Shown here: positions 5,149 to 62,167 of the stretch, piece by piece
Numbering within the stretch: the stretch's first letter is position 1
How the letters are laid out: the number at the start of each line of letters is the position of its first letter
From: Casimicrobiaceae bacterium
GTDB lineage: Bacteria; Pseudomonadota; Gammaproteobacteria; Burkholderiales; Casimicrobiaceae
NCBI GenBank assembly: GCA_036382945.1
Contig: DASVPH010000030.1
Coordinates: forward strand, 7,387-71,386
Direction of reading: 5' to 3'
DNA: 64,000 nt
Position numbers and translations under genes: made by a program
The notes under the pieces: generated by a model
What the model saw: the letters and a program-made list of their open reading frames with translations, nothing else
The model's database searches: none
Told to the model about the DNA's origin: nothing

Positions 5149-5252
5149 CCCAGCAAACGCTTGTCCCCCCCCCGGCCCCGGACTCAAACACTCCGGGGCA
5201 GGCTGCGGCCGGGGCCCAAGCTCGTGCGACTGCCGCGACACCGCGTCCACTT

Positions 5253-5299: not shown

Positions 5300-5489
5300 G
5301 CATTTGTTCCCGATCACGGGCCGCTCACGCGACCCGCTCTCGGACAGCCCTCGTCACTTGGCCAGGAGCGCCTCCACCGCCTGGATCGACCCGCCGGACG
5401 CGCCGGCCGCCGCCCTCAGGTTCTTGACACCGAGCGAATCGACCCGGGTCGAGTAGAATCGCGTCCTCGCTTGACGCTCGGAGCTCGGG

Positions 5490-7334
5490 ATGGCCTTCCG
5501 CCTCGCATTGCTCGTGGTCGTAACGGTCTGGCTCGCGCCAGCGCTGGGCGAGACCCCTGCCGACCGCTGGAATCTCGCCGAGGTGTATCCATCGCTCGCG
5601 GCGTGGAACGCCGATGCGGCCAAGCTCGAAGGGCAGATCGCCGAGTTCGCGGCCTGCAAGGGTCATCTCGGCGACGGCGCACAGCGCTTCCGGCAGTGCC
5701 TCGATCTGCAGGCGGACATGACCAAGCGCTATTACCGTCTCGCCATGTATGCGAGCGAAAAGCTCGCCGAGGACACCGGGTCCGGGCCCTCGCTCGAGCT
5801 CGACCAGCGCGCCGACCTCGTGGGCAACAAGCTCAACGAAGCGCAGGCGTTCGTCGATCCGGAAGTCCTGCGTCTGGGCAGGGAGCGCATCGCGCAGTTC
5901 CTGCGCGAGGATGGTGCGCTCGCCATCTATCGCTTCCCGCTCGAGCGCATCCTGCGCAGGGCCCCGCATACGCTCAACGACGAGGGCGAAGCGCTGGTGG
6001 CGCGCTTCGGCCTGATGAACGGCGCCGGCGCCTCGGCCTACTCGATCCTCACCAACGCCGATATTCCCTGGCCGAAGGTCAAGATCGGCGCGCAAGAGGT
6101 CACCCTCGACCCGTCCGCCTACACCAAATACCGCGAGGCGCCCGACCGCGACGACCGCAAGCGGGTGATGGATGCGTTCTTCGGCACCTACAAGACCTAC
6201 GAGCGCACGATCGGCGTCGACCTCTATTCGCAGCTCAAGCAGGATGCCGTCTACAGCAAGGTACGCAACTATCCGGACTCGATCACGCGCGTGCTCGACC
6301 GCGAGAACGTCCCTGTCGCCGTGTTCGATACCCTTATCGCCCAGGCCAACGCCAACCTGGCCACGCTCCACCGCTACTTCCGCCTGCGGGCGAAGATGCT
6401 CGGCGTGACGCAGCTCCAGTACTACGACATCTACCCGCCGCTCGTGCGCGGCGAATACACCTTCCCGCTGGCCCTCGGAAAAAAGCTCGTGCTCGAGGCC
6501 GTGGCGCCGCTCGGCAGGGACTACGTCGCGGCGATGAAGAAAGGTTTCGACAACCGCTGGATGGACGCGTATCCGCGGCCGCGCAAGCAATCCGGGGCGT
6601 ACATGGACGACCACGCCTACGACGTCCATCCCTACGTGCTCATGAACTACAACGACGACTACGACTCGGTGACGACGATCGCGCACGAATGGGGCCATGC
6701 GCTGCACTCGTACCTGGCGAGCCGCGCGCAGCCGTTCGTCACCTCGCGCTACGCGATATTCGTCGGCGAGATCGCCTCCACCTTCAACGAGGAGTTGTTG
6801 CTGCAACAGATGCTCAAGCAGGCGAAGACCGACGAGGAGCGCCTCTTCTACCTCGGCAACGCGCTGGAGCAGATCCGCGCCACGTTCTTCCGGCAGGCGA
6901 TGTTCGCCGAGTTCGAGCGCAGCATCCACGCGCGGGTCGACGCCGGCGAGCCGCTTTCCGGCGAGGCGCTCACCAAAACCTACTGCGACATCCTGAAGCG
7001 CTACCACGGGGCCCAGGAGGGTGTGGTGGCGATCGACGACCGGTACTGCGTCGAGTGGGCCTACATTCCGCATTTCTATAACGCGTTCTACGTGTATCAG
7101 TACGCGACGTCGATCGCGGCCGCGTCGCTCTTCGCGCAGAGGGTCGAGCGCGGCGAGCCGGGCGCGCTCGAGCGCTACCTCGAACTGTTGCGTGCCGGCG
7201 GATCCGATTATCCGTACGAGCTGGTCAAGAAGGCAGGCGTGGACCTCGCCACGCCCGCGCCGTACCAGGCGCTCTTCGCGCGCATGAACGCGATCATGGA
7301 CGAGATCGAGGTGATCCTGGCAAAGCGGAAGTAG
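5490..7334 (+). CDS. M3-family oligoendopeptidase (PepF-like), secreted
   Basis: 614 aa with an N-terminal signal-like segment LLVVVTVWLAPALG. It carries the zinc motif HEWGHALH, and length and layout fit oligoendopeptidase F. Confidence 0.85.
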   Translation: MAFRLALLVVVTVWLAPALGETPADRWNLAEVYPSLAAWNADAAKLEGQIAEFAACKGHLGDGAQRFRQCLDLQADMTKRYYRLAMYASEKLAEDTGSGPSLELDQRADLVGNKLNEAQAFVDPEVLRLGRERIAQFLREDGALAIYRFPLERILRRAPHTLNDEGEALVARFGLMNGAGASAYSILTNADIPWPKVKIGAQEVTLDPSAYTKYREAPDRDDRKRVMDAFFGTYKTYERTIGVDLYSQLKQDAVYSKVRNYPDSITRVLDRENVPVAVFDTLIAQANANLATLHRYFRLRAKMLGVTQLQYYDIYPPLVRGEYTFPLALGKKLVLEAVAPLGRDYVAAMKKGFDNRWMDAYPRPRKQSGAYMDDHAYDVHPYVLMNYNDDYDSVTTIAHEWGHALHSYLASRAQPFVTSRYAIFVGEIASTFNEELLLQQMLKQAKTDEERLFYLGNALEQIRATFFRQAMFAEFERSIHARVDAGEPLSGEALTKTYCDILKRYHGAQEGVVAIDDRYCVEWAYIPHFYNAFYVYQYATSIAAASLFAQRVERGEPGALERYLELLRAGGSDYPYELVKKAGVDLATPAPYQALFARMNAIMDEIEVILAKRK

Positions 7335-7423
7335 CGGGCGCGAGCAGCGAGAGGGGATCGGGCGTAAAGGAGGCTGCGGGCGCGGCCGGATGCGCCGCTA
7401 CGGCTTCGGTGCCTTCGGTGCCA

Positions 7424-8248
7424 TTACTGCCTCAGCCCCACGATCTGCCCCGTGCTGCTGCAGTCGGTGGCTGCGCTCGTGGAGCTGAATCGAGCGCGGA
7501 GGCTGTAGAAGCTGTTGGCCATCTCGTAGAACACGAACGAGCCGAAATCGCCGTTGCTGCAAGTGTAATTGCCGTCCAGCGCCCCGAAATGCCCTACCTG
7601 GCTATAGACGCCGCTATAGGTGCAAGTCACCGTCAGCGTGCTGCCCGTGAGCACGGTGACGGTCATCGCGGTGTCCGCTTGCGCTATGGTGGCAGCCAAA
7701 GGTGCGGCCGCGGTGTTTGCGTCCGCGGGGCACCCGGCGCCGCTCACCTGTTGGTTGTAAATGCCGAAGAACGTTCCGTTGAAGTTCTCGTAAACCAACA
7801 CCTGGCGCGTGATCGCCTTGTTCACGACCACGCCATCGACCGAGTAGGTCAGACTGGCCGTTTCAATGAACTCGGCGGTAAAGGTCATCGACCCGACCGG
7901 GGTGGCCGTCACCGTCGCGGGGTCGAAGGGAACCGTCCCGAACCAAGGACCGGTCGTAGCGTAAAGTGTCCCGGTCCAGAAGTTCTTGTCGTTCGAGTCC
8001 AGTCCCCCGTAATCCAGGGTCGCGACATACCAGGTTGGCTTGCCCGCGGCGTCGTAGACGAACATGGTGGCGAACAGGACACTGCCCTGGTGGACGATCT
8101 GCATTCCCCAGCCGCTCTCGGCGGGGATCCACCACAGGTCGGACTGATCGGTGCTAAAGGAGGTGGCTCTTGCTTTGGAGCCGTACAGCGCGGTCAATCC
8201 CAGCACGACCGCGACGGAAATCGCACCTACCACGCGACGCAGCTTCAT
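7424..8248 (-). CDS. secreted hypothetical protein
   Basis: Start taken at MKLRRVVGAISVAVVLGLTALYG (signal peptide), with GGAGAAGGGA upstream. I recognise no family. Confidence 0.6.
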   Translation of the reverse strand: MKLRRVVGAISVAVVLGLTALYGSKARATSFSTDQSDLWWIPAESGWGMQIVHQGSVLFATMFVYDAAGKPTWYVATLDYGGLDSNDKNFWTGTLYATTGPWFGTVPFDPATVTATPVGSMTFTAEFIETASLTYSVDGVVVNKAITRQVLVYENFNGTFFGIYNQQVSGAGCPADANTAAAPLAATIAQADTAMTVTVLTGSTLTVTCTYSGVYSQVGHFGALDGNYTCSNGDFGSFVFYEMANSFYSLRARFSSTSAATDCSSTGQIVGLRQ

Positions 8249-38889: not shown

Positions 38890-39977
38890 GCGCCGCAGGG
38901 CCGTCCCAAGGCGCGAATTGCGCCCCCGCTTTTGGGGGCAGCGCAGCGGCCGAATTGGCCAATGAGGCCGCAAGCGTGGGGGCACACCAACATGCCCTCC
39001 TCGATGTTCGCGACCTCCGGACGTCGTTCGCGGTCGAGGGTGGCGAGCTGGCCGCCGTCGATGGGCTCAGCTTCGCGCTCGAGCCGGGACGCACGCTCGC
39101 GATCGTCGGCGAATCCGGTTGCGGCAAGAGCGTGACCGCGCTGTCGATCATGGGACTCATCGCGGCGCCGCCGGGACGCGTGCGCGGCGAGATCCTGTTC
39201 GAGGGCGTCGATCTCACCCGGCTTTCTCCGGCCGAGATGCGCGAGCTCCGCGGTAACCGGTTGTCGATGATCTTCCAGGAGCCGATGACCTCGCTCAATC
39301 CGGCTTTCAGCGTCGGCGAGCAGATCGCCGAAGTGCTGCTGCGGCATCGCCGCGTCTCGCGCGACGAGGCCCGGACGCGGACGATCGAGCTGCTGCGGCA
39401 GGTGCAGGTTCCTTCACCGGAACGGCGCTTCGCCGACTATCCTCACCGGCTCTCGGGCGGCATGCGGCAGCGGGTGATGATCGCGATGGCGCTCGCCTGC
39501 GAGCCGAAGCTTCTCATCGCCGACGAACCGACGACCGCGCTCGACGTCACCATCCAGGCGCAGATCCTGGATCTCATGCGCACGCTGCGCGAGCAGACCG
39601 GTGCGGCGATCATCCTGATCACGCACGATCTCGGCGTGGTCGCCGAGCTGGCCGACGAGGTCGCAGTGATGTACGCGGGCCGGATCGTCGAGCGCGCGGG
39701 CGTCGCGCGGCTGTTTGCCGAGCCGCAGCATCCCTACACCGTCGGCCTCCTGGGGTCGATTCCTCGGCTGGAGCTCGAGCAGGAGCGGCTGCCTGCGATC
39801 GAGGGCCTGGTGCCCAATCCGCTCGATCCGATCGCCGGCTGTCGCTTCCATCCGCGCTGTCCGTTCGCGGTCGAGCGCTGCCGGACCGAATGCCCGCCGC
39901 TCAGCGCGATGGGAGTCGCGCACGTTAGCGCGTGCTGGCGCGCTCCGCTCGACGCCGATGTTCTGGTGCCGGCGTGA
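38886..39977 (+). CDS. peptide ABC transporter ATP-binding protein (DppD/OppD-like)
   Basis: [27 protein letters not shown] and the C-terminal oligopeptide-type extension. ATGA overlap with DUF1028. An alternative GTG start is at 38976. Confidence 0.88.
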
Positions 39978-49919: not shown

Positions 49920-52589
49920 CTACGCGAGACTCGGCGAGAGCGCCCGGCGCAGCGCGTCGCTCGCCTCACCCGAGCGGCGCGCGAGGTCGGCGAGCTGGTC
50001 CTCGCCGATCTTGCCCACCGCGAAGTAGACCGCTTCCGGGTGCGCGAGGTAGAAACCCGCTACCGACGCGGCGGGGAGCATCGCGTAGCTCTCGGTGAGC
50101 TGCATCCCGATTTTGCGCGCCTGCAAGAGCTCGAACAGCGCCGCCTTGGCGGTGTGGTCGGGACAGGCGGGATAGCCCGGTGCGGGGCGGATGCCGCGGT
50201 ATTCCTCGCGGATCAGCGCCGCGTTGTCCAGCGCCTCCTCCGGCGCGTAGCCCCAGTATTCGCGCCGCACGCGCATGTGCAGCCATTCGGCGAAGGCCTC
50301 CGCCAGGCGATCGGCCAGCGCCTTCAACATGATCGCGCCGTAATCGTCCTTCCTCGCTTCGAGCTCGGCGAGCTTCTTCTCGATGCCGAGCCCCGCGGTA
50401 ACGGCGAACGCCCCCGCGAAGTCCGCCACACCCGACGCTTTGGGCGCGACGAAGTCGGCCAGACAATAATTGGGTTTGCCCGGCGGCCGCAAGTTCTGCT
50501 GGCGCAAGTTGCGCCAGGTTAGCGCGACTGTGGCGCGCGAAGCGTCGGCGTAGAGCTCGATGTCGTCGCCCGCCGAGTTCGCGGGCAGGAGCGCTATCGC
50601 CCCGTTGGCGGTGAGCCAGCGTCCCTGGACGATTTGCTCGAGCATCGCCCGACCGTCGGCGTACACGTTGCGTGCAGCCTCGCCCACGACCGGGTCGTCG
50701 AGGATCGCGGGAAACGGCCCGGAGAGCTCCCAAGTCTGGAACAACGGCGCCCAGTCGATGTAGCGGGCGAGCTCCGCGAGATCCGCGTTGCGGATTTCCC
50801 GCCGGCCCACGAGCGCCGGCCGCGGCGGCGCGTAGCCGCGCCAATCGGCCTTGAAGGCGTTGGCGCGCGCCGTCTCCAGAGAGATCAGCTCGGGTCCCTT
50901 CTTGGCGGCATGCTGGGCGCGGACCCTGTCGTAGTCCGCGGCGACCTCGCGCGCATAGGCGTCGCGCCGCTCGGGGGAGATGAGGCTCGCCGCCACACCC
51001 ACCGCGCGCGAGGCGTCCGGCACGTACACGGTAACGCCGGCGTAGTTGGGCGCGATCTTCACCGCGGTGTGCACGCGCGAGGTCGTCGCCCCGCCGATCA
51101 AGAGCGGCTGCCGCATCTCAAGCCGCTGCATTTCGTGCGCGACATGTGCCATCTCCTCGAGCGACGGGGTGATGAGTCCCGAGAGCCCGACGATATCGGC
51201 GTTTCTCTCGCGCGCGGTGTCGAGGATCTTCTGCGCGGGCGCCATGACGCCCAGATCGATTACCTCGAAGTTGTTGCACTGGAGCACCACCCCGACGATC
51301 TTCTTGCCGATGTCGTGCACGTCGCCCTTCACCGTTGCCATCACAATCGTGCCTTTCGGCTTGCCGCCCTCACCGGAAGCCGCCTTCTCCGCCTCGATGA
51401 ACGGCACCAGGTGCGCCACCGCCTGCTTCATCACCCGCGCGCTCTTCACCACCTGCGGCAGGAACATCTTGCCCGCACCGAACAGATCGCCCACCACGTT
51501 CATGCCCGCCATCAGCGGCCCCTCGATGACCTGGATCGGCCGCGGATACTTGCGCCGCGCCTCCTCGGTGTCGTCGATGATGTAGGTGGTGATGCCCTTG
51601 ACCAGCGCGTGCGTGAGGCGCTCCTCGACGCTGCCCGCGCGCCATGCGAGATCCTCTTCCGCCTTGCGGCCCTTCGCCTTGTAGGTTTCGGCGAACGCGA
51701 CCAGGCGGTCGGTGGCATCGGGACGGCGGTTCAAGACCGCGTCCTCGACCCGCTCGCGCAACTCCGGATCGAGGTCGTCGTAGACGCCGAGCTGACCGGC
51801 GTTGACGATGCCCATGGTGAGCCCGGCGCGGATCGCGTGATAGAGGAACACGGTATGGATCGCCTCGCGCACCGGATCGTTGCCGCGGAAACTGAAGCTC
51901 ACGTTGGAGATGCCGCCGGAGACCTTGGCGTGCGGCAAATGCTGCTTGATCCACGCGGTGGCACGTATGAAATCGACCGCGTAGTTGGCGTGCTCCTCGA
52001 TGCCGGTGGCGATCGCGAACACGTTCGGGTCGATGATGATGTCCTCGGCCGGGAAGCGGACCTTGTCGACCAACAGATCGTAGGCGCGGCGGGCGATCGC
52101 GATCCGGCGCTCGTAGGTGTCGGCCTGTCCGTGCTCGTCGAAACACATGACGATTGCCGCCGCGCCATAGCGCCGAACGAGCCGCGCCTGGCGCAGGAAC
52201 TCCGCCTCACCCTCTTTCAGCGAGATCGAGTTGACGACCGGCTTCCCCTGCACGCATTTCAAGCCGGCTTCGATCACCTCCCATTTCGAGGAGTCGATCA
52301 TGACCGGCACGCGGGCGATGTCGGGCTCGGCGGCGATCAGGTGCAGGAATTTCACCATCGCCGCCTTGGAATCGAGCATCGCCTCGTCCATGTTGACGTC
52401 GATCATCTGCGCGCCGTTGCCGACCTGCTGCCGCGCGACCTCGACCGCGCCCGTGAAATCGCCGGCGAGGACCAGCTTGGCGAAGGCGCGCGAGCCGGTG
52501 ACGTTGGTGCGCTCGCCCACGTTGACGAACAGCGAGTCCTCCGCGATGGTGAGCGGCTCGAGGCCGGCTAGGCGGAGCGGCTGCGGCAT
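49920..52589 (-). CDS. metH: methionine synthase, pterin-binding + B12-binding + activation domains (split MetH, large subunit)
   Basis: It begins [12 protein letters not shown]...[13 protein letters not shown], equivalent to E. coli MetH from about residue 350. It has the B12 motif DVHDIGK and an AdoMet activation domain. Confidence 0.92.
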
Positions 52590-52606
52590 GGGTCGGATCG
52601 TTTCAC

Positions 52607-52683
52607 AAAGAGACACACAGACACTGAGAGGACCTCAGGCATTTCCCAGAAAAGCTCCTCTCTGTGTCTCTGTGCCTCTCTTT
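52607..52683 (-). promoter_or_regulatory. long AG/CT-rich intercistronic hairpin
   Basis: Arms 52607-52632 and 52656-52683 pair over about 26 bp (2 mismatches, 2-nt bulge) with a 23-nt loop. It spans from the metH-N stop codon to 17 nt before the metH-C ATG. Confidence 0.6.
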
Positions 52684-53720
52684 CAAACAACAGTCGGCAG
52701 CCGCCTCGGCGCAACGTTCTTCACCGCTTCGGCGATCGCCCGAATGTGCTCCGGTGTGGTGCCGCAGCAGCCGCCGACGATGTTGACGAAGCCGTTCTGG
52801 GCGAAGTCGCGGATCAACCGCGCGGTGGTCTCCGGCGCCTCGTCGTAGCCGGTCTCGCTCATCGGGTTGGGCAGCCCCGCGTTGGGGTAGCACGACACGA
52901 ACGTGTCGGCCACCCGCGCCATCTCCTCGATGTAGGGCCGCATCAGCGCCGCGCCGAGCGCGCAGTTGAGTCCCACCGCGAGCGGGCGCGCGTGCCGCAC
53001 CGAATTCCAGAACGCCTCGGTGGTCTGGCCCGAGAGCGTGCGGCCGGAGGCGTCGGTGATCGTCCCCGACACGATGAGCGGAAGCCGAACGCCGTGCTCG
53101 TCGAAGTAGGTGTCGATCGCGAACAGCGCCGCTTTGGCGTTGAGCGTGTCGAACACCGTCTCGACCAGCAGCAGATCGACGCCGCCCTCGATCAGCGCGC
53201 CCGCCGCTTCGCCGTAGGCGGCGACGAGCTCATCAAAGCTCACGTTACGAAAGCCCGGGTCGTTCACGTCGGGCGAGATCGTCGCGGTGCGGTTGGTCGG
53301 GCCCAGCGCGCCGGCGACGAAGCGCGGCTTGTCGGGCGTGGCCGCGGTCCACGCGTCGGCGCGCTCGCGGGCGAGCTTCGCTGCGGCGAGATTGATCTGG
53401 CGCACGCGCTCTTCCAGCCGGTAGTCGGCCTGCGCGATCCGCGTCGCGTTGAAGGTATTGGTCTCGATGATGTCGGCGCCCGCGGCGAGAAACTGGTCGT
53501 GGATCGCGCGGATCACGTCCGGCTGGGTGAGGACGAGCAGATCGTTGTCTCCCTTGAGCTCGCCGGGGTGCGCGTGCAGCCCGCACGCCGCGGGGCCGCG
53601 AAACTGCGCCTCGCTCAGCTTGCGTGCCTGGATCATCGTGCCCATGGCGCCGTCGAGGATCAGGATGCGCTCGCGCAGGAGCTTCATGAGCAAGGCCGTC
53701 TTGTCGCTCTTCGCCGTCAT
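52683..53720 (-). CDS. metH: homocysteine S-methyltransferase domain protein (split MetH, small subunit)
   Basis: [20 protein letters not shown] and [11 protein letters not shown] correspond to MetH residues 1 to about 350. ATG 53720 is preferred over TTG 53732. Confidence 0.9.
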
Positions 53721-53730
53721 GATGAGACCC

Positions 53731-53770
53731 AAAATAAAAAAACCCGTTCAGCTCGCCGCCGAGCGGGTTT
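53731..53770 (-). terminator. intrinsic terminator inside the metH leader
   Basis: The minus-strand RNA is AACCCG-CUCGGCGGCGAG-CUGAA-CGGGUU followed by UUUUUAUUUU. It ends about 11 nt before the metH ATG. Confidence 0.55.
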
Positions 53771-53863
53771 CGGTCGAAAGCCGCTTTAGCAGGATTTGTA
53801 GAGCGCCCGCAAGCTGTCGGACAAGGCACGCACCCAGGCCCGGGTCAAATCGGCGCTGCTGGA

Positions 53864-53892
53864 AAGGTAAGGGCTGCGGGGCAGGTTGTCAA
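53864..53892 (-). promoter_or_regulatory. sigma70-like promoter for metH
   Basis: TTGACA (53892-53887), a 17-nt spacer, then TACCTT (53869-53864) on the minus strand. Confidence 0.4.
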
Positions 53893-54038
53893 CCACGATA
53901 CCGCCACCACGATACCGCCGCCGGGTGGCGCTTGCCGTGTAACCGGATGAAGCGTTCAATCGAGTCGACGTACGCCTGCTCGGCGCGGATGCTGTAGTGC
54001 TTGAGGATCCTGTCCCGCATGCGGGCGAGTGGGCGCGG
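53889..54038 (-). pseudogene. intI: integron-type tyrosine recombinase, N-terminal stub
   Basis: RPLARMRDRILKHYSIRAEQAYVDSIERFIRLHGKRHP parallels IntI1 [34 protein letters not shown]. The frame then runs into SWWRYRG* with no catalytic domain. Confidence 0.55.
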
Positions 54039-54140
54039 GGAATCGGGGCGTCCATGGGCCGATCGTGGCGTAGTGGCTCGCGCGGTGTCTTTAGGCACCA
54101 CCATTGGCAGCGACCAGGTTGATTCGGGGCGCATTTTGCC

Positions 54141-54240
54141 GCTCGAACCAAGCCTTTCGGGTGAGTGACGGTTTATTTCCCGTCGTTGATAGCGGCGCTG
54201 GCGCGGCGTCCGCTCGGCGCCGGTTATTGGTTCGTTAGCC
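54141..54240 (+). other. attI/attC-like site (non-canonical)
   Basis: The right half GCGGCGCTGGCGCGGCGTCCGCTCGGCGCCGGTTA..TTGGTTCGTTAGCC is near-identical to the 54892-54941 segment. CGAACCAA (54144-54151) pairs with TTGGTTCG (54227-54234), and it ends in GTTAGCC. Confidence 0.3.
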
Positions 54241-54291
54241 GTGGTCTGGCGCTCGGAGTAACATCTGTCCAACGATTCGAGAGGCAACCGC

Positions 54292-54513
54292 ATGAAGCAG
54301 TCGTCCGTTGTTCACTCCGATCCCGACATCCTGGGTGGTACCCCGGTGCTCGTTGGCACACGGGTCCCCGTCCAGGCACTGATTGACTACATCGAGGGCG
54401 GACACTCCCTCGAAGAGTTCCTCGATGACTTCCCGACTGTGAGCCGGGAAATCGCGGTGGCCGCCCTCGAGCAGGCGAAGGCGCACCTGCTCGCCGATGC
54501 GCGTGCTTCTTGA
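54292..54513 (+). CDS. DUF433 domain antitoxin-like protein
   Basis: DPDILGGTPVLVGTRVPVQALIDYIEGGHSLEEFLDDFP is the DUF433 signature. GAGAGG lies upstream. It overlaps the next ORF by 17 nt. Confidence 0.8.
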   Translation: MKQSSVVHSDPDILGGTPVLVGTRVPVQALIDYIEGGHSLEEFLDDFPTVSREIAVAALEQAKAHLLADARAS

Positions 54514-54683
54514 CGAGTGCGTTCCCCGAGCCCTACGCGCGGAGCCTCCTGACCACGAAGTCAAGACCGTTGCTGAGGCCGGGTGGGCCGGCGTCAAAAA
54601 CGGCTTGCCGCTGCAGCGCGGCAACGCGCTTCGACGTTCTCCTGACCGTCGTGCGAATGCGTCGCGACGAAATACCCGCGTGA
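54497..54683 (+). pseudogene. DUF5615 (PIN/Mut7-C-like) toxin gene, frameshifted and 3'-truncated
   Basis: Frame 0 reads MRVLLDECVPRALR...HEVKTVAEAGWAGVKNG. Similarity continues only in the +1 frame (AATRFDVLLTV) and stops at TGA 54681-54683. Confidence 0.55.
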
Positions 54684-54768
54684 ACACGATCCTGCCGGCG
54701 CGCTCCGCTGCACACGCGGCAATCACATCCTTTTCCAGATCCACACCTACCGTAGTAATCCCGTTCAT
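54649..54768 (-). mobile_element. IS110-family transposase 5' fragment
   Basis: MNGITTVGVDLEKDVIAACAAERAGRIVFTRVFRRDAF resembles the DEDD transposase N-terminus (ITxxGxDLAKxVF...GKxVxxRKLRR). GAGAGGGGAAG lies upstream, and similarity is lost after ~40 aa. Confidence 0.45.
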
Positions 54769-54868
54769 GACTTCCCCTCTCGTTCAGATTGACGGGACAA
54801 CACTTCAATCTTGGCACTTCGATGCCGTGCGGTTCCACCGCTTCGAGTAGGGGAAGTCCCTTCTATTC

Positions 54869-54928
54869 GCTCAACCCGGATGCCTCGCCGGCGGCGCTTG
54901 CGCGCCGTCCGCTCGCGGCCGGTTAGCT
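54869..54928 (+). other. attC-like recombination site
   Basis: GCTCAAC (RYYYAAC) ... GGCGC-TTGC-GCGCC ... GTTAGCT is a 60-bp imperfect palindrome directly after the DUF433/DUF5615 cassette. Confidence 0.45.
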
Positions 54929-54968
54929 TGGTTCATTAGACCTCGCAGCGTCACCGCTTGCGTAGTAC

Positions 54969-54979
54969 ATACAATGTAT
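54969..54979. promoter_or_regulatory. 5-1-5 palindrome in the brnTA promoter region
   Basis: ATACA-A-TGTAT overlaps TACAAT and TATATA -10-like hexamers, 15 nt upstream of the brnT ATG. Confidence 0.35.
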
Positions 54980-54993
54980 ATACCCTCTGAGGC

Positions 54994-55261
54994 ATGGGAT
55001 TCAAGCACGATCCGGCCAAGGCGGCGGCAAATCTCAAGAAACATGGGGTTTCGCTCGCGGACGCCGAAGGCGTGCTTGAGGATCCGCTCGCGGATCACTG
55101 TCGAGGATCCGGATGCCGAAGGTGAACAACGCTTCGTTACGATCGGCCTGGGAAACGCTGGTGACCGTCTTGTGGTGGTCTGGACAGAGCGCGACGCAGA
55201 ATGCCGCCCGATTTCGGCGCGGCGGGCGACGCGAAAGGAACGGAAACAATATGAGGGCTGA
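54994..55261 (+). pseudogene. brnT: BrnT-family toxin gene with +1 frameshift
   Basis: MGFKHDPAKAAANLKKHGVSLADAEGVLEDPLA (frame A, stops at 55125) joins ITVEDPDAEGEQRFVTIGL...ISARRATRKERKQYEG (track ORF frame) if one G of GCGG at 55090-55093 is removed. Confidence 0.7.
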
Positions 55262-55556
55262 GTACGATTTTTCAAAAGGCAAGCGCGGAGCGGTCATCCC
55301 GCAGAAGGGCAAGACGCGCATTTCTATCTTTATCGACAATGCTGTGCTCGACGAATTTCGGGCGCGCGCGGACAAGGCTGGGACGGGATATCAAACCATG
55401 ATGAATGATGCGCTTCGGAAGTACCTATCCGAACCAGACAATCCGGTGACTGAGAAGACGCTACGCCAAGTCTTGCGCCAGGAGATGCCTGAGTACCTAC
55501 GAGGTCTAACCGCCGCATCCACTCGGACGCGCGCCAAAGGCGACGCTCGCCGGTGA
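55251..55556 (+). CDS. brnA: BrnA-family antitoxin
   Basis: MRAEYDFSKGKRG...KTRISIFIDNAVLDEFR...GTGYQTMMNDALRKYL. It overlaps the brnT stop by 11 nt. Confidence 0.8.
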   Translation: MRAEYDFSKGKRGAVIPQKGKTRISIFIDNAVLDEFRARADKAGTGYQTMMNDALRKYLSEPDNPVTEKTLRQVLRQEMPEYLRGLTAASTRTRAKGDARR

Positions 55557-55571
55557 TGCGGATCGTTAGGC
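55504..55571 (+). other. attC-like recombination site
   Basis: GTCTAAC (RYYYAAC)-CGCC-GCATC ... CGCC-AAA-GGCG ... GATGC-GGATC-GTTAGGC (GTTRRRY). It is 68 bp and overlaps the 3' end of brnA. Confidence 0.55.
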
Positions 55572-55579
55572 GTAAAACG

Positions 55580-56086
55580 ATGGGACCAAAGTCAGCCGAG
55601 CTGCGAGCGTTTATGATTCTGCTGGCACTCGCGGCGTGGTTCGGGCCGATAGGCGGGGCGCACGCCGGCACCATGGTCCGCGTGGTCGAAACATGGCCAT
55701 CCGGCGAGGACGTCGTGTTGGGGCGAAACCAGAATTTCTACCTGCGCCTGGCTTATGACACGGACACGCCCGTCGGCATCTGGGTAGCGCCGTACCTCCA
55801 CGGCAAGCGAGTGAGCGCGGGTAGCAGTCCGTCGCAGACTTATTCGGGCAGCGGGGAGACTTTCGGCTCGTTTTTCTTCATGCGGCCCGGAGACGAGGTG
55901 GATGAAATCCGCGTCACTGCGGGGGACGGCAGCACGGACCATACGCCGGTCGTCGCGACCTGGAGCGGACATGTGGCGGGTAGCAGCGAGGCCGTCGGTG
56001 CACAAGCGCAGCCGGCGTGGGTAGCGCAGATGAGCGCGCGTGCCAAGGCGGCGCAGGATCAAGCCTACCGGGAGCGCTGCTCCTGA
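55580..56086 (+). CDS. secreted hypothetical protein (cassette-borne)
   Basis: The ATG lies 9 nt after GTTAGGC. It has signal peptide MGPKSAELRAFMILLALAAWFGPIGGAHAG and no recognised domain. Confidence 0.55.
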   Translation: MGPKSAELRAFMILLALAAWFGPIGGAHAGTMVRVVETWPSGEDVVLGRNQNFYLRLAYDTDTPVGIWVAPYLHGKRVSAGSSPSQTYSGSGETFGSFFFMRPGDEVDEIRVTAGDGSTDHTPVVATWSGHVAGSSEAVGAQAQPAWVAQMSARAKAAQDQAYRERCS

Positions 56087-56202
56087 TCGCCATCGCTTCC
56101 GGTGTGCTCGCGGTGGCTTATCGCGGCTCGATACCTGGGCACCACGATGCCTGGGCGCGAATCGGCTAACATCCTCCGCAGACAATTGCGCGCTCACCGC
56201 CG

Positions 56203-57138
56203 ATGCTCGATCCGGACATCCGTCGCCTGCTCGACACCATCTTCAGCGCACCGCCGCCGGTCGGACCGCCGGATATCGCCGAGCTGCGCGCGGCTGCGGA
56301 GGCCGCGCCCGCGCTCCTGGGCGGTCCCGCCGTCGAGCTCGCCTCGATCCGCGACGTAAGCGCGCCGGGTCCTGCCGGCCCGTTGCCGCTGCGGATCTAC
56401 ATGCCGGACTCGCCTTCGCCTCTGCCGCTCGTGCTCTACGCACACGGCGGCGGCTGGGTCACGGGCTCGCTCGATTCGCACGACAAGCTCTGTCGCATTC
56501 TCGCGCAGGGCCTGCGCGCGCTCGTGGTTGCCGTCGACTATCGACTCGCGCCCGAGAGCCCCTACCCAGCGGCGCTCGACGACGTCGAGGCCGCGTGGCG
56601 GTGGGCGGGCACGCAGGCGCATGCGCTCGGCGCGCACGGCGGACGCTTCGCGCTCGCCGGAGACAGCTCGGGGGCCAATCTGGCCGCGGCGCTGACGCTG
56701 CGCCTCAGGCGCGACGGCGCGGCGCAACCGTGTCTGCAGCTCCTGCTCTATCCTGCGCTCGACGCGACCTGCTCGCGGGCCTCGTATCGCGCCTTCGCGA
56801 GCGGCCACAACCTGACTGCGGCGCAAATGGCGTGGTACTGGGACAGCTATCGCGGCCGCGCTGCGGTCGATGCGCCCGAGCTCTCGCCGCTCGCTGCCGC
56901 CGATCTCGCGCATCTGCCGCCGGCAGTGATCGCAGTCGCCGCAGCCGATGTGCTGCGCGACGACGGCCTGGACTATGCGCGCCGCCTCGAATCCGCTGGC
57001 GTTCCCGTCCGCGTCGTGCAGTGCACCGGCATGATCCACGGCTTTCTGCGCTGGACCGGCGAAGTGCCCGCGGCGGCGCGCTGGATCGATGCGATCGTCG
57101 CGGCGGCGCGCGGCCGGCTCGCGCCCGAGCGCGCCTGA
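56203..57138 (+). CDS. alpha/beta hydrolase, HSL/esterase-lipase family
   Basis: HGGGW oxyanion motif and GDSSG nucleophile elbow. 311 aa. Confidence 0.85.
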   Translation: MLDPDIRRLLDTIFSAPPPVGPPDIAELRAAAEAAPALLGGPAVELASIRDVSAPGPAGPLPLRIYMPDSPSPLPLVLYAHGGGWVTGSLDSHDKLCRILAQGLRALVVAVDYRLAPESPYPAALDDVEAAWRWAGTQAHALGAHGGRFALAGDSSGANLAAALTLRLRRDGAAQPCLQLLLYPALDATCSRASYRAFASGHNLTAAQMAWYWDSYRGRAAVDAPELSPLAAADLAHLPPAVIAVAAADVLRDDGLDYARRLESAGVPVRVVQCTGMIHGFLRWTGEVPAAARWIDAIVAAARGRLAPERA

Positions 57139-57215
57139 ATCGGGTGCAGAGCGTCTCGGCTACGAAAGCCTCGGCGCGGTTGCTGCCGGCGGCGGCCCGC
57201 GGTCGTGTAACCCGA

Positions 57216-57446
57216 TTACCAACTCCCCGAGCTTCCCCCGCCACCCGAGCTGCCTCCGCCGAAGACGAACGCGCCGAGCAGGATGCGTTGCGGCCAGGCA
57301 AGGTTGGGCTCGCGCAAGCGCAAAGCCGAGCTGCTGCTCGTCATCGACGCGCTCGCAGCGGCATCGGCCGCAACGCCAGGGTTGCCTTCGAGCCCGGAGA
57401 TGATCGCGTCGAGGCCTTCGGCGATGCCCCTGTCGCGAGCGCCGGA
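57216..57446 (-). pseudogene. YgcG-like TPM-protein C-terminal remnant
   Basis: RGIAEGLDAIISGLEG...ILLGAFVFGGGSSGGGGSSGSW* is the TM and Gly-rich tail typical of YgcG-type proteins. It has no N-terminal TPM domain and no start. Confidence 0.4.
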
Positions 57447-58100
57447 TCACGACGGGCCCTGCTCTTCGAACGGACCGTCGGGCAGTTCGTCCTCGCCGCC
57501 GGCACGCCGGGCGAAACCCTTGGCGGCGAGCACCTGCCCGAGCAGCGCCACGCCCGCGTGCAGCGCCTCGGGGAAGCGCCCGGCGCGCAACAGCGGCGCC
57601 ATCGCGGCGATGACGCGGTCCCAATCGGCGCCGGCCATCCGACCGTACAAACCGACGTCAGGCAGGATCTCGACCTTGCGCTCGAACTTGCAGACCAGGA
57701 TGAGAATGCCGGTGCGCGCGCGGGTCTTGAACAGCTCGCGGCGCAAGAAGAGCGACTGCGCGTAATGCCGTACCTCCAGGTCGCGCAACGCCCGACGCAG
57801 GAACAGCCGTGCGTACGCGGGGATGAATACCGCGGCGAGCGCGCTCGCGCCGCCGGCGGCGAGGATCGTCACGGTGGTGAGCAGCGCCACCTGCGCCGTG
57901 ATCCAGTCCGGTCGCACCCAGTCGACGATCACCGCCGTCAACGCTGCGAGCGAGACGCCCAGCGCGAAGGCCATCCACGGCAGCCCGGCATAGGCATCCG
58001 CCTTGCCGACGATCGCGGTGACGACCTGCACCCCGGTGCGCGCCTCGACGCGCGCGATGGCGGCGTCGATCGTCTCGGTTTCGCTTCGGGAGATGAACAT
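57447..58100 (-). CDS. TPM domain-containing membrane protein
   Basis: Start at MFISRSETETIDAAIARVEARTG, with TM insertions. FERKVEILPD.G....W is TPM/DUF477-like. Confidence 0.75.
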   Translation of the reverse strand: MFISRSETETIDAAIARVEARTGVQVVTAIVGKADAYAGLPWMAFALGVSLAALTAVIVDWVRPDWITAQVALLTTVTILAAGGASALAAVFIPAYARLFLRRALRDLEVRHYAQSLFLRRELFKTRARTGILILVCKFERKVEILPDVGLYGRMAGADWDRVIAAMAPLLRAGRFPEALHAGVALLGQVLAAKGFARRAGGEDELPDGPFEEQGPS

Positions 58101-58131
58101 GAATGGCTTTCGCGACGAAGAACTGCCCGCT

Positions 58132-58683
58132 CTAGAGCGCGAGCGACATGTACACGACGCCGGCGAGCGGGTTCTCATAATACGGCGCGCACTCGCGGAA
58201 GCCCAGCGCCGCATAGAGCGCGCGCGCCGCCTGCATCCAGTCGAGCGTATCGAGCTTGAGCTCGCGATAGCCGATGGCGCGCGCCTCGCCGACCACCGCA
58301 CGCGCGAGCCGCGCTCCCCAGCCTTCGCCGCGCCGCGCGCGCTGCACGTAGAGGCGTTTTACTTCGCCGACGGCGATTGCGGCCTCGGGTGGGGCCGCAC
58401 TGCAGGCGCACCCCGAGCCGGCGGCGAGCGGTCGCAAGGCCACGCAGCCGAACGCCGCGTCGGTTTCGCCCGCCAGAAGCAACCGCCCGCGCGGCGGCGC
58501 GTACGCGCCGGGCAGGCCCGCGAGCTCGCGGTCGAAACCTTGAAAGCACAGGTCGACCTTGAGCCATCGGGCGTATTCGACGAACAGGGCCCGCGCGAGC
58601 TCGATGTCGCGCGGCGAGCGCGCGGTGCGGATCGACTCGGCACTCGCGGTGCGCTGCGCGCCGGTCAAGGCGTCTTCTCGCAT
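58132..58683 (-). CDS. GNAT family N-acetyltransferase
   Basis: VKRLYVQRARRGEGWGARL (Q/RxxGxG/A motif) ... LYAALGF. Confidence 0.8.
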   Translation of the reverse strand: MREDALTGAQRTASAESIRTARSPRDIELARALFVEYARWLKVDLCFQGFDRELAGLPGAYAPPRGRLLLAGETDAAFGCVALRPLAAGSGCACSAAPPEAAIAVGEVKRLYVQRARRGEGWGARLARAVVGEARAIGYRELKLDTLDWMQAARALYAALGFRECAPYYENPLAGVVYMSLAL

Positions 58684-59315
58684 GTGCCGGTGTTGATCTC
58701 GGTGCCGCTAAAGCCGGTCTGCAGCTCCTTCATTCGCGCCACGGCGCTCGCCGGCGGATCGCGCACGACCAGCACCGTCTCCGTGACCGACTGCACCCGC
58801 GGTCCGACTTTCGCCGTGCTGACGCCTCGCGCCTGCAACGCGGCGAGCCGCGCCTGCGCCGCCTCCTCGGTGCGGAACACGCCAAGCGAGATCGCCAAGC
58901 GTTGCGCTCCGCTGTCGATCAGCGCGACGTCTCGAATGCCCTGTGCCTTGAGCTCCTCGAGCCGTCGATCGGCTGCCGCCTTGTTGGCCGCCGGGGCGAT
59001 GAACACCCAGTAGTTGACAATGACCTCGGCCTTCTTCTGGCTGATCAGGCGCGAGAGGTCGAGCGGCTCGAGCGCGGCGAGCGCGCGTGTCTTGTCGCCC
59101 TCGGTGAACGGTCCCCATTCGACGCACACGTCGGCGAGCTCGGAGGCTTTGGCCGGACCGAGCGCGGCGACCTGCTGCGGCGTGAGCAGGCTGATCTTGT
59201 CCGGCTGCACCTGCTGCGACAAGCGTATGCCCTCGCCCGCGCTCATGTTGTCGAGATAGATGTAGCCGACCAGCGCGAGGTTGGCGAGCAGCAGCAGGAC
59301 GACGAGCGTTCTCAT
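58665..59315 (-). CDS. SPOR domain-containing protein
   Basis: N-terminal TM helix MRTLVVLLLLANLALVGYIY. The C-terminal SPOR-like segment is YWVFI......AA......L...G......SLGVF...EAA. Confidence 0.75.
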   Translation of the reverse strand: MRTLVVLLLLANLALVGYIYLDNMSAGEGIRLSQQVQPDKISLLTPQQVAALGPAKASELADVCVEWGPFTEGDKTRALAALEPLDLSRLISQKKAEVIVNYWVFIAPAANKAAADRRLEELKAQGIRDVALIDSGAQRLAISLGVFRTEEAAQARLAALQARGVSTAKVGPRVQSVTETVLVVRDPPASAVARMKELQTGFSGTEINTGTCEKTP

Positions 59316-59338
59316 CCTCGGCTCAGGAGCCTGTCGGG

Positions 59339-60082
59339 CTAGTAACCGCTTTCGGCAAGGGCGAGCACGCCCTCGAGCACCAGATTATCCACGACCTCCA
59401 CCGGAGCGGTAAGGTACGGCGCGATGTCGGCAGCTGCACCGCCGGCGAGGAAAGCCTTCGGCGCGGGACCGTCGCCGGCCAGGCGCCGGCGCATCTGTTC
59501 GATCGCACCGCACACCGCCTGCATCGTCCCGGAGGCGAGCGCATCGGCGGTGTTGATGGGGAAGTCGTGCACGCGCCCCGGCGGCACCTTGAGCGCCGCG
59601 GTGCTCGCCGAGAGCGCCTGCAGCATCATGTTGAGGCCGGGCAGCACGAACCCGCCGCGGAATACGCCGTTCTCGTCGAGCGCGTCGACCGTCACCGCGG
59701 TGCCGGCGTTGACGACCACGCAGGAGGAGGGAAAGAGCTCGTTCGCCGACCGCCGCCGGGCTGCGATCAGCGAAGCCCAACGATCCGCGCCGAGCTGCGA
59801 CGCTCGCGCGTAGCGGTTGTAGACGCCGCAGGCTTCCTCCTGCGCGATCAGCCACTCCGGGGTCAGACGCCAGCGCACGAGCTGCGCTTCGACGCGCACG
59901 CGGGTCGCCTCGCCGGCGACGTTCACGCCGACCACGCGCGAAGGTCGCGCCAGGCTCTGCCAGTCGCGCAGCGCGAGCGTCCCGATCTCCTGATTGAGGA
60001 TGTTGCCTTGCGCGATCCAGCCGTGCGGCCCGGCCAGCGCCCACTTGAAGCGGCTGTTGCCGCAGTCGAGCAACAGGATCAC
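59339..60082 (-). CDS. coaX: type III pantothenate kinase
   Basis: MILLLDCGNSRFKWA and VVVNAGTAVTVD. ATGA-type overlap with birA. Confidence 0.9.
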   Translation of the reverse strand: MILLLDCGNSRFKWALAGPHGWIAQGNILNQEIGTLALRDWQSLARPSRVVGVNVAGEATRVRVEAQLVRWRLTPEWLIAQEEACGVYNRYARASQLGADRWASLIAARRRSANELFPSSCVVVNAGTAVTVDALDENGVFRGGFVLPGLNMMLQALSASTAALKVPPGRVHDFPINTADALASGTMQAVCGAIEQMRRRLAGDGPAPKAFLAGGAAADIAPYLTAPVEVVDNLVLEGVLALAESGY

Positions 60083-61059
60083 GGCCGCCGCAGCGAGACT
60101 TCGCCGTTGACGAAACGCAGCCGCCGTCCGCCGCTGTCGAGAACGAGCGCGCCGTCGGCGTCCACGCCGAAGACCTCGCCGCGCACCCGCCCGCCGTCAG
60201 GCAGCAGCACCTGCACCGGCTTTTTCTGCAGCACGTGCCGCCGCTGCCACGCGGTACGCAGCGGCGCGAAGCCCGCGGCGGCGTAGGCGTCGAGCACGCC
60301 GGCGAGCTCCGCCGCGATGCGCGCGGTGAGCGCATTGCGATCGATCGTGCGTCCCGGCACCATCTCGGCGAGATCGACGACCGGGTGCCCGACGTCGCGC
60401 CGCGCTCCGGTCGGCAGGCGGACGTTGAGCCCGACGCCGATCACCGCGAGTGAGGGCCCGAGCGCGTCGCCGGAGAGCTCGACCAGGATGCCGCCGAGCT
60501 TGCGCGCGTCGTAGATCAGGTCGTTCGGCCATTTGAGCCCGACCCCCGCGAAGCCTTCGGCCTCCAGCGCGACGGCGAGCCCAAGCCCGACCGCGAGCGG
60601 CAGCGCCGAGAGGTAGCCCGCGCCCTGCTCGAAGCGCCAGCCCAGCGAGAACGTGAGACTGCCGCCGATGACCGACGTCCAGGTGCGACCGCGCCGGCCG
60701 CGTCCCGCCGTCTGGCATTCGGCGGCCAAAAGATGCCGGTGGATATCGCCGTGCGCGGCGCGGCGCGCGAGCTCGCTGCTGGTGGAATCGAGCACGTCGG
60801 CGATCTCGATCGAAAGCGCAGGGGTCCGCGGCCCCAGCATGCGGCTGATCGCGTCGCGCTCGAGAAACGGCAGCGCATCGCGCAACCGGTAGCCGTGGCC
60901 GCGCCGGCGCTCGAGCTCGAGCCCCGCCGCGAGCGCTTCGCGCAACACCTGCGAAACGCGGGCGCGGGTGACGCCGCTCGCCGCAGCCAGCGCCTCGCCC
61001 GAGTGCAGCTCGCCGTCGGAGAGCCGGCGCAACAGGGAAAAGCCGAGAGGCGAGAGCAC
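60079..61059 (-). CDS. birA: bifunctional biotin--[acetyl-CoA-carboxylase] ligase / repressor
   Basis: N-terminal HTH (SGEALA...GVTRARVSQ) and the GRGRRGRTW biotin-binding loop. Confidence 0.88.
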   Translation of the reverse strand: MLSPLGFSLLRRLSDGELHSGEALAAASGVTRARVSQVLREALAAGLELERRRGHGYRLRDALPFLERDAISRMLGPRTPALSIEIADVLDSTSSELARRAAHGDIHRHLLAAECQTAGRGRRGRTWTSVIGGSLTFSLGWRFEQGAGYLSALPLAVGLGLAVALEAEGFAGVGLKWPNDLIYDARKLGGILVELSGDALGPSLAVIGVGLNVRLPTGARRDVGHPVVDLAEMVPGRTIDRNALTARIAAELAGVLDAYAAAGFAPLRTAWQRRHVLQKKPVQVLLPDGGRVRGEVFGVDADGALVLDSGGRRLRFVNGEVSLRRP

Positions 61060-61084
61060 GGGTGGAGCGCTACAAGCGCGGACT

Positions 61085-62167
61085 TTAGCCCTTCAACACG
61101 CCGCGCCGGATCTGATCGAGCTCGATCGACTCGAACAGCGCGCGGAAGTTGCCTTCGCCGAAGCCCTCGTTGCCCTTGCGCTGGATGATCTCGAAGAAGA
61201 TCGGACCGATGACGGTGGTGGTGAAGATCTGCAGCAGCATCTCGTCCTTCGCGGGCGTGCCGTCGAGGAGGATGCGGTTGCGCTTGAGCCGCGCGGTGTC
61301 CTCCTTGTGATTCGGCAGGCGGGTCGCGAGCAGCTCGTAGTAGGTGTCGGGGGTGTCCTGGAAGGCGACCCCGCGCCGGCGCAGCTCTTCCACGGTGGCG
61401 TGGATGTCGCCGGTGCCAAGCGCGACGTGCTGGATGCCTTCGCCGTGGTACGCGACGAGGTACTCCTGGATCTGCGACTTGTCGTCGGCGCTCTCGTTCA
61501 CCGGGATGCGGATCTTGCCGCAGGGGCTCGCCATCGCCTTGCTCTTCAAGCCGGTGAGCTTGCCCTCGATGTCGAAGTAGCGCACCTCGCGGAAGTTGAA
61601 CAGCCGCTGGTAGAAGCCGGCCCACTCGTCCATCCGGCCGCGGTGCACGTTGTGGGTCAGGTGATCGATGTAGGTGAGCCCTGCGCCCGCCGGATGCTGA
61701 TCGGCGCCGGCGAGCGGAACGAAGTCGACGTCGTAGATCGACACACCGGTGCCGTTGCCCGGATAGCGATCGACGAGATAGATCAGCGAATCGCCGATGC
61801 CCTTGATCGCCGGAATGTTGAGCTCCATCGGCCCGGGGTGCGCTTCGACGCCCCACGCGCCCTGGGCGATCGCGCTCCGGTAGGCGTGCGCCGCGTCCTT
61901 GACGCGAAAGGCAATCGCGCAGATCGACGGGCCGTGCACGCGCGCGAACGCCTGCGCGAAGCTGCCCGGCTCGGCGTTGACGATGAAGTTGATCTCCCCC
62001 TGGCGATACAGGGTCACGTTCTTGGAGCGGTGCCCGGCGACCGCTGCGAAGCCCAGTCGGCGGAAGAGCTTGCCGAGAGCCGGGGGATCGGGCGCGGCGT
62101 ATTCGACGAACTCGAAGCCGTCGGTGCCGAGCGGATTGTCCCAGAGCGGTGGCTGCGCGCTGCCCAT
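61085..62167 (-). CDS. hppD: 4-hydroxyphenylpyruvate dioxygenase
   Basis: 360 aa from the ATG at 62167. GFEFVEY, IDHLTHNV, GIQHVAL and FFEIIQRKG are HPPD hallmarks. Confidence 0.92.
   Translation of the reverse strand: MGSAQPPLWDNPLGTDGFEFVEYAAPDPPALGKLFRRLGFAAVAGHRSKNVTLYRQGEINFIVNAEPGSFAQAFARVHGPSICAIAFRVKDAAHAYRSAIAQGAWGVEAHPGPMELNIPAIKGIGDSLIYLVDRYPGNGTGVSIYDVDFVPLAGADQHPAGAGLTYIDHLTHNVHRGRMDEWAGFYQRLFNFREVRYFDIEGKLTGLKSKAMASPCGKIRIPVNESADDKSQIQEYLVAYHGEGIQHVALGTGDIHATVEELRRRGVAFQDTPDTYYELLATRLPNHKEDTARLKRNRILLDGTPAKDEMLLQIFTTTVIGPIFFEIIQRKGNEGFGEGNFRALFESIELDQIRRGVLKG

Follow-up and report, generated by a model that had tools for sequence, protein, structure and literature searches.

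Integron remnants, pseudogenes of the integron integrase gene (intI), insertion sequences (ISs) that hit attC sites, and toxin–antitoxin (TA) cassettes are all kinds of element that are already well documented (PMC4889954, PMC11187229, PMC8352920). In the survey of Cury et al. (2016; PMC4889954), intI pseudogenes were recorded near 15 of 279 clusters of attC sites lacking integron-integrases (CALINs), and ISs in about a quarter of complete integrons. The IS1111 family is defined by subterminal repeats beyond which the element extends 7 bp on the left and 3 bp on the right; some of its members target one end of attC sites (PMC11187229). TA cassettes are typical cargo of chromosomal integrons (PMC13108822). 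Here, we studied a 64,000-nucleotide stretch of a Casimicrobiaceae genome (the window; positions 7,387 to 71,386 of contig DASVPH010000030.1, assembly GCA_036382945.1; all coordinates below are those of the window unless a contig is named), in which 53920-56130 is very probably a non-functional fragment of a chromosomal-type integron, of a family common in soil bacteria. With the same high confidence, we regard this fragment as fossilised at a variable intergenic spot of this Casimicrobiaceae bacterium, between the leader of the methionine synthase gene metH and an esterase gene.

The ancestral layout was intI on the minus strand, attI, and then plus-strand cassettes with an attC closing each; what is left is a 2.2-kb remnant comprising an intI stub, a damaged attI, and three damaged cassettes. 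A sequence-only reading of this DNA had already proposed a decayed integron, at 53889-56172, and the proposal holds: a covariance model scores both of the palindromes that it named, and among integrases the stub resembles IntI, with no match to the Xer or phage types. Every element that it listed lies where it placed it. Its right end has to be moved in, to ~56130, where the homology of the third cassette stops, and its inventory overlooked a half attC (54192-54240) and the remnant of an IS1111-type element. The parts of the remnant, with the neighbouring duplication, are as follows.

53892-53919, no strand: perfect 14-bp tandem duplication (ACCACGATACCGCC twice), from a repeat search.
53920-54055, minus strand: intI pseudogene stub, from NCBIfam matches, tblastn against IntI1, and identity to metagenomic contigs L096 and L201.
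54092-54191, plus strand: attI-region remnant, from blastn to contig L140 and a four-way alignment with L140, L096, and L189.
54192-54240, plus strand: attC-0, the 3' half of an attC of the family here called A, with R' box GTTAGCC at 54234-54240, from a direct repeat, a model match, and alignment.
54292-54513, plus strand: cassette 1, intact antitoxin-like DUF433 gene (Pfam PF04255, E=5e-17).
54497-54655, plus strand: cassette 1, DUF5615/PIN-like gene, frameshifted and truncated, from tblastn of the homologue in contig L083.
54661-54868, minus strand: left end of an IS1111-family IS, from identity to contig L194 and tblastn to the L194 transposase.
54869-54941, plus strand: attC-1, family A, present from L'' to R' only and with two stem mismatches (model score 79.7 bits; family consensus).
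54994-55261, plus strand: cassette 2, brnT toxin pseudogene with one frameshift near 55100 (Pfam BrnT_toxin in two frames).
55251-55556, plus strand: cassette 2, intact brnA antitoxin gene whose 3' end runs into attC-2 (Pfam BrnA_antitoxin, E=1.8e-11).
55504-55571, plus strand: attC-2, the sole structurally complete attC, R'' GTCTAAC and R' GTTAGGC (model score 30.1 bits; fold).
55580-56069, plus strand: cassette 3, N-terminal ~177 codons of a 278-residue secreted or membrane protein, from homologues (91% to contig L202).
56067-56130, plus strand: cassette 3, codons ~4-24 of an 83-residue partner gene, the right-hand end of the remnant (90% to L202).

As the sequence-only reading had observed, every cassette open reading frame (ORF) lies on the plus strand, pointing away from the stub, and the region is richer in AT than its flanks (G+C of 57-60% at 54600-55600, compared with 65-73%).

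The minus-strand stub encodes the peptide MRDRILKHYSIRAEQAYVDSIERFIRLHGKRHP, of which the part ...RPDSPRPLARMRDRILKHYSIRAEQAYVDSIERFIRLHGKRHPA is 51% identical to IntI1 residues 13-57 (tblastn). Two integron-integrase models match it, both as a 134-residue ORF (NF011946, E=1.3e-8; TIGR02249, E=3.5e-5) and as a 46-residue peptide (E=8.4e-9 and E=1.4e-5, respectively), and no Xer, phage, or other recombinase model of NCBIfam does so at E<=1; the claimed parallel to the IntI N-terminal domain is thus borne out, and the better match to a phage or Xer integrase that could have overturned it did not occur. Nucleotide identity is 72.6% to the start of intI in L096 and 71% to that in L201, and against TIGR02249 the longer homologues of the stub's N-terminus reach 210 bits (L201) and 104 bits (L189), compared with at most 49 bits against XerC, the 49 bits being that of the L201 fragment. 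Comparison with L096 places the ancestral ATG at 54055-54053, out of frame with the stub body; we therefore read a 1-nt deletion in codon 2. Homology to IntI stops after ...GKRHPA, at about codon 45 (53919-53921), and the ~45 N-terminal codons that remain are without the catalytic C-terminal and IntI-specific regions. Neither a second integrase nor an IS copy was found elsewhere in the window. A homologue search with the stub returned only itself, which in a Casimicrobiaceae metagenome-assembled genome (MAG) is annotated, on an 82.6-kb contig, as a hypothetical protein of 43 residues.

A quite different account would have a phage- or Xer-type integrase fragment lying next to unrelated palindromes of the repetitive extragenic palindromic (REP) type and ordinary TA genes. 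It can draw on the match of the stub to the SAM-like domain PF13495, which stays under the curated cut-off (23 vs 27 bits) and concerns a domain not exclusive to IntI, and on the folding z-scores of the palindromes, which are weak and unremarkable (-0.6 to -2.3). We consider it extremely unlikely, given the model matches of the stub just described and what follows on the palindromes and the IS.

The duplication listed above begins at the exact base where IntI homology stops and abuts a TTGACA (minus strand, 53892-53887); it may be the scar of a repair event, or it may belong to a new promoter. The sequence-only reading had set the -35 box of a metH promoter on this truncation joint, and a TTGACA does stand at the joint; the promoter itself was not recovered, the candidate TTGACA-17-TACCTT (53892-53864) failing the criteria of the scan, which found none, and showing no conservation in relatives. 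As a side observation on integrase fragments, the best 120 database relatives of an IntI N-terminus (query, the L189 fragment; P0122-P0241) are all fragments of 100-200 residues, several of them on contigs of 60 kb to 5 Mb and hence not cut short by a contig end; truncated intI stubs of this sort seem common.

The palindromes belong to a family that can be followed far beyond this genome. A 26-nt core common to 54201-54226 and 54900-54925 matched >120 soil-metagenome contigs, often several times per contig, on the same strand and 300-1800 bp apart. Within this family A the core is invariant as the search pattern by which the family was collected, and ~90% of the other positions are conserved. 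The consensus of 104 sites reads GCCTAAC-CTCTC-GCTCAACC-CGGACGCC...GGCGCCGG-TTAGC-TTGGTTC-GTTAGGC, its outer heptamers being the R'' and R' boxes. RNAalifold alone yielded the inner stem and a spurious 3' hairpin, and the canonical R and L helices were accordingly specified and then tested: with the canonical attC structure imposed on the 104-site alignment, 96.2% of cells pair, compared with 26-46% when the 3' partners are slid, and two of the pairs show compensation by GC<->CG exchange, in 33 and 37 sequences. Single C, C, and A bases bulge from the top strand; in the bottom strand, the one that recombines, they correspond to extrahelical G, G, and T. On the family itself we note that it spans ~84 nt from GCCTAAC to GTTAGGC, occurs in arrays of at least 14 sites (>120 soil contigs, L081-L200, for instance L097, L087, L092, L134, and L137), and falls into two subfamilies that differ by a compensatory swap of CGCC/GGCG and CCGC/GCGG.

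A covariance model built from these 104 metagenomic sites, none of them from the window, was run over the whole 64 kb with filters off. Its top three matches all fall within this region, on the plus strand and within 1.4 kb, where the working definition of integron-derived DNA asks for two or more co-oriented attC sites inside 4 kb: attC-1 (54851-54947; 79.7 bits, E=3e-23, with non-standard pairs in the R helix and inner stem), attC-2 (55499-55577; 30.1 bits, E=6e-7, full length and with all pairs standard), and attC-0 (54165-54246; 23.8 bits, 3' half only). The next best score, 18.3 bits at 39819-39877, is background. attC-2 was matched on the plus strand alone.

Both palindromes proposed from the sequence are therefore real, and the box assignment of the first is not: GCTCAAC and GTTAGCT (54869-54928), taken to be R boxes, are ruled out as such by the family consensus and instead mark the inner L'' (GCTCAACC, 54869-54876) and L' (GGTTAGC, 54921-54927) boxes of attC-1, whose R' is ATTAGAC (54935-54941) and whose R'' disappeared along with the IS. 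Although it differs in sequence type from family A, attC-2 has the same architecture, with bulges at the canonical places. Folding of its bottom strand, proposed earlier as a check, gave an extrahelical G at 55520 and T at 55527 in the R''/L'' arm, and the next ORF does begin 9 nt past GTTAGGC (55565-55571), with an ATG at 55580. A further box-like motif, GGCTAAC at 56164-56170, was a candidate for the R'' of one more attC at the end, and was discarded: it has no model match and mismatches the expected GCCTAAC, and it is not an attC box because the homology of cassette 3 ends at ~56130 with no attC after it.

The integron integrase cuts R' between G and TT, and the next six bases therefore belong to the following cassette and should be complementary to its own R''. 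Among 93 informative neighbours in the metagenomic arrays, R'' fits the preceding R' rather than its own R' in 71 and the reverse in 12 (p=2e-11). The window keeps the rule: the R' of attC-1, (A)TTAGAC, and the R'' of attC-2, GTCTAAC, are complementary at 6/6 positions, as read from cassette 2, the R'' boxes of cassettes 1 and 3 being lost. These are real mobile cassettes. Unrelated REP-like palindromes do not explain a family that stands in co-oriented arrays beside IntI and attI and carries this signature of the cassette circle.

Homology also extends through the attachment region between the stub and the cassettes. The window's attI remnant is 76% identical to L140 over 97 nt (blastn, E=3e-12), and the homology to soil-integron attI runs up to ...TTTATTTCCCGTCGTTGATAGCGG (54191); the attI of the L096, L189, L201, and L140 contigs ends ...TTTATTTCCCGTCGTTTTAGGCGG-TCTACTTCTCGTTAGGC, and in the window the crossover core (TCTACTTCTCGTTAGGC) is missing. 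After ...TTTATTTCCCGTCGTTGATAGCGG the window continues as the middle of a family-A attC (CGCTGGCGCGGCGTCC...), the terminal attI segment with its GTTAGGC crossover core having been replaced by half an attC. From this join we read a deletion at a GCGG microhomology that took the attI core and the DNA up to that attC. The attC half is confirmed by a direct repeat, 54192-54226 being an 89% copy of 54891-54925 and these the sole two copies in the 64 kb. In L096, L189, and L201, an IntI N-terminus stands divergent from family-A attC sites or cassettes, with a homologous attI. The intact relatives that the sequence-only reading called for thus exist in metagenomes, with IntI N-terminus, homologous attI, and the same attC family, and at the metH site none was found among 80 loci. 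Two of these contigs merit mention for themselves. L140 has at 7200-7480 an attI-like region homologous to that of the window, followed by a cassette array and with no IntI frame recognisable upstream, and may be another decayed platform. L201 (1-2320) is an integron with an intI fragment and an rve-family IS beside attI, and its first cassette-like unit holds a 62-residue ORF resembling the C-terminus of a homocysteine S-methyltransferase domain.

Before attC-1, the expected GCCTAACCTCTC is replaced by ...GGGGAAGTCCCTTCTATTC, which is the end of an IS. The remnant holds a 7-bp extension (GAATAGA), the subterminal repeat AGGGACTTCCCC, the leader, and the ~41 first transposase codons; the left 208 bp survive and the right end is absent from the window. 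Cassette 1 has lost its distal half here, and neither R'' nor the remainder of the IS is left. Across the IS-attC junction, window positions 54730-54939 are 80% identical to L194, and the ~41 codons match residues 1-41 of the L194 transposase (tblastn, E=5e-6); 84 plasmid matches carry an IS110-family annotation, and Pfam PF01548 reaches only E=0.2. The L194 transposase is of the IS110 family (353 residues; 353 bits against NF033542). L194 holds an intact copy of the IS (~4294-5679, transposase gene 4356-5417), located between the R''-side spacer and L'' of a family-A attC. That copy is flanked by ...CCTAACCTCTC and GCTCAACC..., begins with GAATGGA and AGGGACTTCCCC, ends with GGGGAAGTCCAT and ATA, and thus has 12-bp subterminal repeats, extended by 7 bp on the left and 3 bp on the right. 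The left end in the window (GAATAGA and AGGGACTTCCCC) occupies the same attC position, and the two IS-attC junctions are identical. An attC-targeting IS1111-type element at the same insertion point as in L194 is a further argument against the account without an integron.

As for the cargo, the TA content claimed from the sequence stands for DUF433, BrnT, and BrnA, all recognised by Pfam, and less firmly for DUF5615, which stays below threshold (E=0.07 on the repaired peptide); both toxin genes have proved to be pseudogenes. The DUF5615-like gene changes frame after ...VKNG and breaks off near codon 55 of ~106; its L083 homologue is 47% identical over residues 1-36 (tblastn) and finds its continuation AATRFDVLLTV in another frame. 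Homologous DUF433/DUF5615 pairs occur in the family-A arrays of L083 and L192. In brnT, positions 2-29 of the BrnT_toxin profile match in one frame and 26-77 in another. With both toxins disrupted and both antitoxins intact, neither module can act as an addiction system. Cassette 3 aligns to L202 at 1474-1942 (91% nucleotide identity) and then jumps to 2276-2337 (90%), from which we deduce a 334-bp internal deletion; tblastn homology to the 278-residue protein stops at 56083, homology as a whole ends inside the 83-residue gene, and no attC was found after ~56130. More than 140 homologues of the cassette-3 protein, mostly of ~278 residues, were found, always with the 83-residue gene next, and in L201-L204 such two-gene cassettes are bounded by attC-like model matches. 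The 278-residue type has a signal peptide and C-terminal membrane helices, its partner is a membrane protein, and neither falls in a Pfam family; genome bins with cassette-3 homologues include those of Nitrospira, Dyella, Burkholderiaceae, and Cellvibrionaceae.

It could be argued that the orphan antitoxins DUF433 and brnA have been kept as anti-addiction genes, which would neutralise toxins brought in by TA-bearing cassettes or elements, with attC-2 as a landing site for cassettes delivered in trans. Such retention would fit the loss of both toxins with both antitoxins spared, as well as the identity of the region across three samples. The same observations are equally expected from neutral decay, which predicts that the toxin goes first because prior loss of the antitoxin would be lethal; we judge retention very unlikely.

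Sequence comparisons show at least seven lesions, whose order and whose occurrence at the present site are our reconstruction. The intI gene has a 1-nt deletion in codon 2 (lesion 1) and has lost everything past codon 45 (lesion 2). The microhomology deletion from inside attI to the middle of an attC removed the attI crossover site (lesion 3). An IS1111-type IS entered attC-1 between the R''-side spacer and L'' (lesion 4), and a later deletion took R'', most of the inserted element, and half of the DUF5615-like gene. Both toxin genes, the DUF5615-like gene and brnT, are frameshifted (lesion 5), and cassette 3 carries the 334-bp deletion within it (lesion 6) and is cut before its attC (lesion 7). 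Two antitoxin-type genes (DUF433 and brnA) and one attC survive intact. Because the integrase and the attI core are gone and two competent attC sites are not to be had, the surviving parts alone can neither release nor take in a cassette; expression of orphan small ORFs is the most that can be expected of the region.

The cluster might nonetheless still be usable as a CALIN, with an integrase encoded elsewhere in the genome acting in trans on its attC sites, so that cassettes could be excised or new ones added. attC clusters without a neighbouring integrase are common, half of them in replicons that encode an IntI (PMC4889954); our survey covered 64 kb of the genome; and attC-2 is structurally complete, with canonical bulges. 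Excision, however, needs two competent sites, and attC-0 is a half site, cassette 3 has no attC, and attC-1 lacks its R'', has ATT for GTT in R', and carries the two stem mismatches. The attI core is deleted, the rest of the window holds no integrase, and attC-2 could at most take in a new cassette. We therefore find continued use very unlikely and prefer to see the locus as a non-functional fragment.

The source being a short-read MAG, a chimera also has to be weighed, in which the reads of some integron carrier would have been fused to the chromosome of a Casimicrobiaceae bacterium. Repeats of this kind are places where assemblers break contigs or join them wrongly, and the attC family concerned is very abundant in soil metagenomes. 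Two Logan assemblies from other sequencing runs (L205 and L206) match window positions 54905-62086 without gaps, at 99.57% and 99.98%, and both of their contigs begin inside the attC-1 core, that is, with an assembly break at the repeat. The same two independent assemblies, however, hold brnA (the gene is called in both), the truncated cassette 3, and the esterase through birA as one contiguous stretch at 99.6-99.98%, and the right joint is therefore real. From this match it also follows that the brnT frameshift, the cassette-3 deletion, and the esterase joint are reproduced and fixed in the population. On the left, the joints (intI with the metH leader, attI with attC) are not at repeats, and cassette 2 follows attC-1 with the matching R'/R'' signature. 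We put the chance of a chimera as remote.

Several points weigh against reading the locus as an integron fragment that decayed where it now lies. The left half, from the stub to attC-1, is represented by one metagenome-assembled contig; exact-protein look-ups for the N-terminal part of MetH (with two start codons), the stub, and DUF433 returned no independent contigs, which leaves this half without an independent assembly. The covariance model is specific to its family, and the 30 bits of attC-2 overlap the reverse-strand scores of true sites, although attC-2 itself scores on the plus strand only. With ~45 codons of intI, the IntI-specific C-terminal insertion cannot serve as a criterion. An IntI could be encoded farther off than the 64 kb surveyed, and there is no relative with an integron here that would distinguish decay in situ from the acquisition of an already broken fragment.

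On its left, the remnant has the 5' part of metH, a split gene in this genome (52683-53732, minus strand); on its right comes an esterase gene of the hormone-sensitive-lipase type (56203-57138, plus strand). An intact integron at this site had been looked for in relatives and was found at 0 of 80 metH loci from other species, none of which has an IntI within 10 kb. The closest relative (L001; 78% MetH identity) keeps the synteny birA-SPOR-GNAT...metH and has methyltransferase and rhodanese genes in the equivalent gap; the presence of other genes there marks a variable spot, not a conserved integron site. Here metH itself is split in two on the minus strand, into a 349-residue homocysteine-binding part (52683-53732) and an 898-residue pterin/B12/S-adenosylmethionine part (49920-52616), and a separate N-terminal MetH stretch was also matched in the betaproteobacterial relatives that we fetched. 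In the metH leader (53765-53866, minus strand), there is an element resembling the SAM-II (SAM_alpha) riboswitch that scores 23.1 bits, under the gathering score of 36; the homologous leader of a Usitatibacter genome (L054, 9884-9961) scores 38.6 bits as SAM-II. Ahead of the metH start, at 53748-53762, stands a stem-loop and then a run of T.

The locus is a real but ordinary genomic fossil, and it matters little beyond annotation. It serves as a worked example of the death of an integron, by intI truncation, a microhomology deletion between attI and attC, and an IS followed by a deletion in an attC, and also of toxin-first decay of TA cassettes and of deletions within cassettes. Standard screens search for the C-terminal motif of IntI and for two or more good attC sites, and do not see remnants of this kind. 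By-products of the analysis, namely the consensus and covariance model of an abundant and uniform soil attC family and the intact attC-targeting IS1111-type element of L194, could aid the classification of soil cassette data.

Set against the systems with which we began, the remnant most resembles inactivated chromosomal integrons and CALINs with an intI pseudogene (PMC4889954), sharing with them the pseudogene itself, co-oriented cassettes separated by attC sites, and an IS. It differs in that decay is more advanced, with ~45 intI codons, a deleted attI core, and one intact attC, and in that both of its outer ends are deletion joints; because those ~45 codons are N-terminal, the pseudogene screen used in that survey, which relies on a C-terminal IntI motif, would miss the stub. 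Like the sedentary chromosomal integrons of the Vibrio and Xanthomonas types (Ghaly et al. 2021; PMC8352920), it has in attC-0 and attC-1 members of a highly uniform, long-array family, whereas it is itself a 2.2-kb fragment, its attC-2 is of another sequence type, and no relative carries an integron at the metH site. With the attC-targeting IS1111 elements (ISPst6 and ISKpn4; the IS1111-attC group of Tetu and Holmes 2008, cited in PMC11187229), the IS shares a DEDD/IS110-type transposase (in the L194 copy), subterminal inverted repeats with 7-bp/3-bp extensions, and one fixed point and orientation near the attC end; unlike them, the window retains the left 208 bp only. Finally, its two-gene BrnT/BrnA and DUF433/DUF5615 units are those of chromosomal-integron TA cassettes, the same pairs occurring in L083, L192, and L191, and they depart from working TA cassettes in that the toxins are disrupted and the antitoxins intact.

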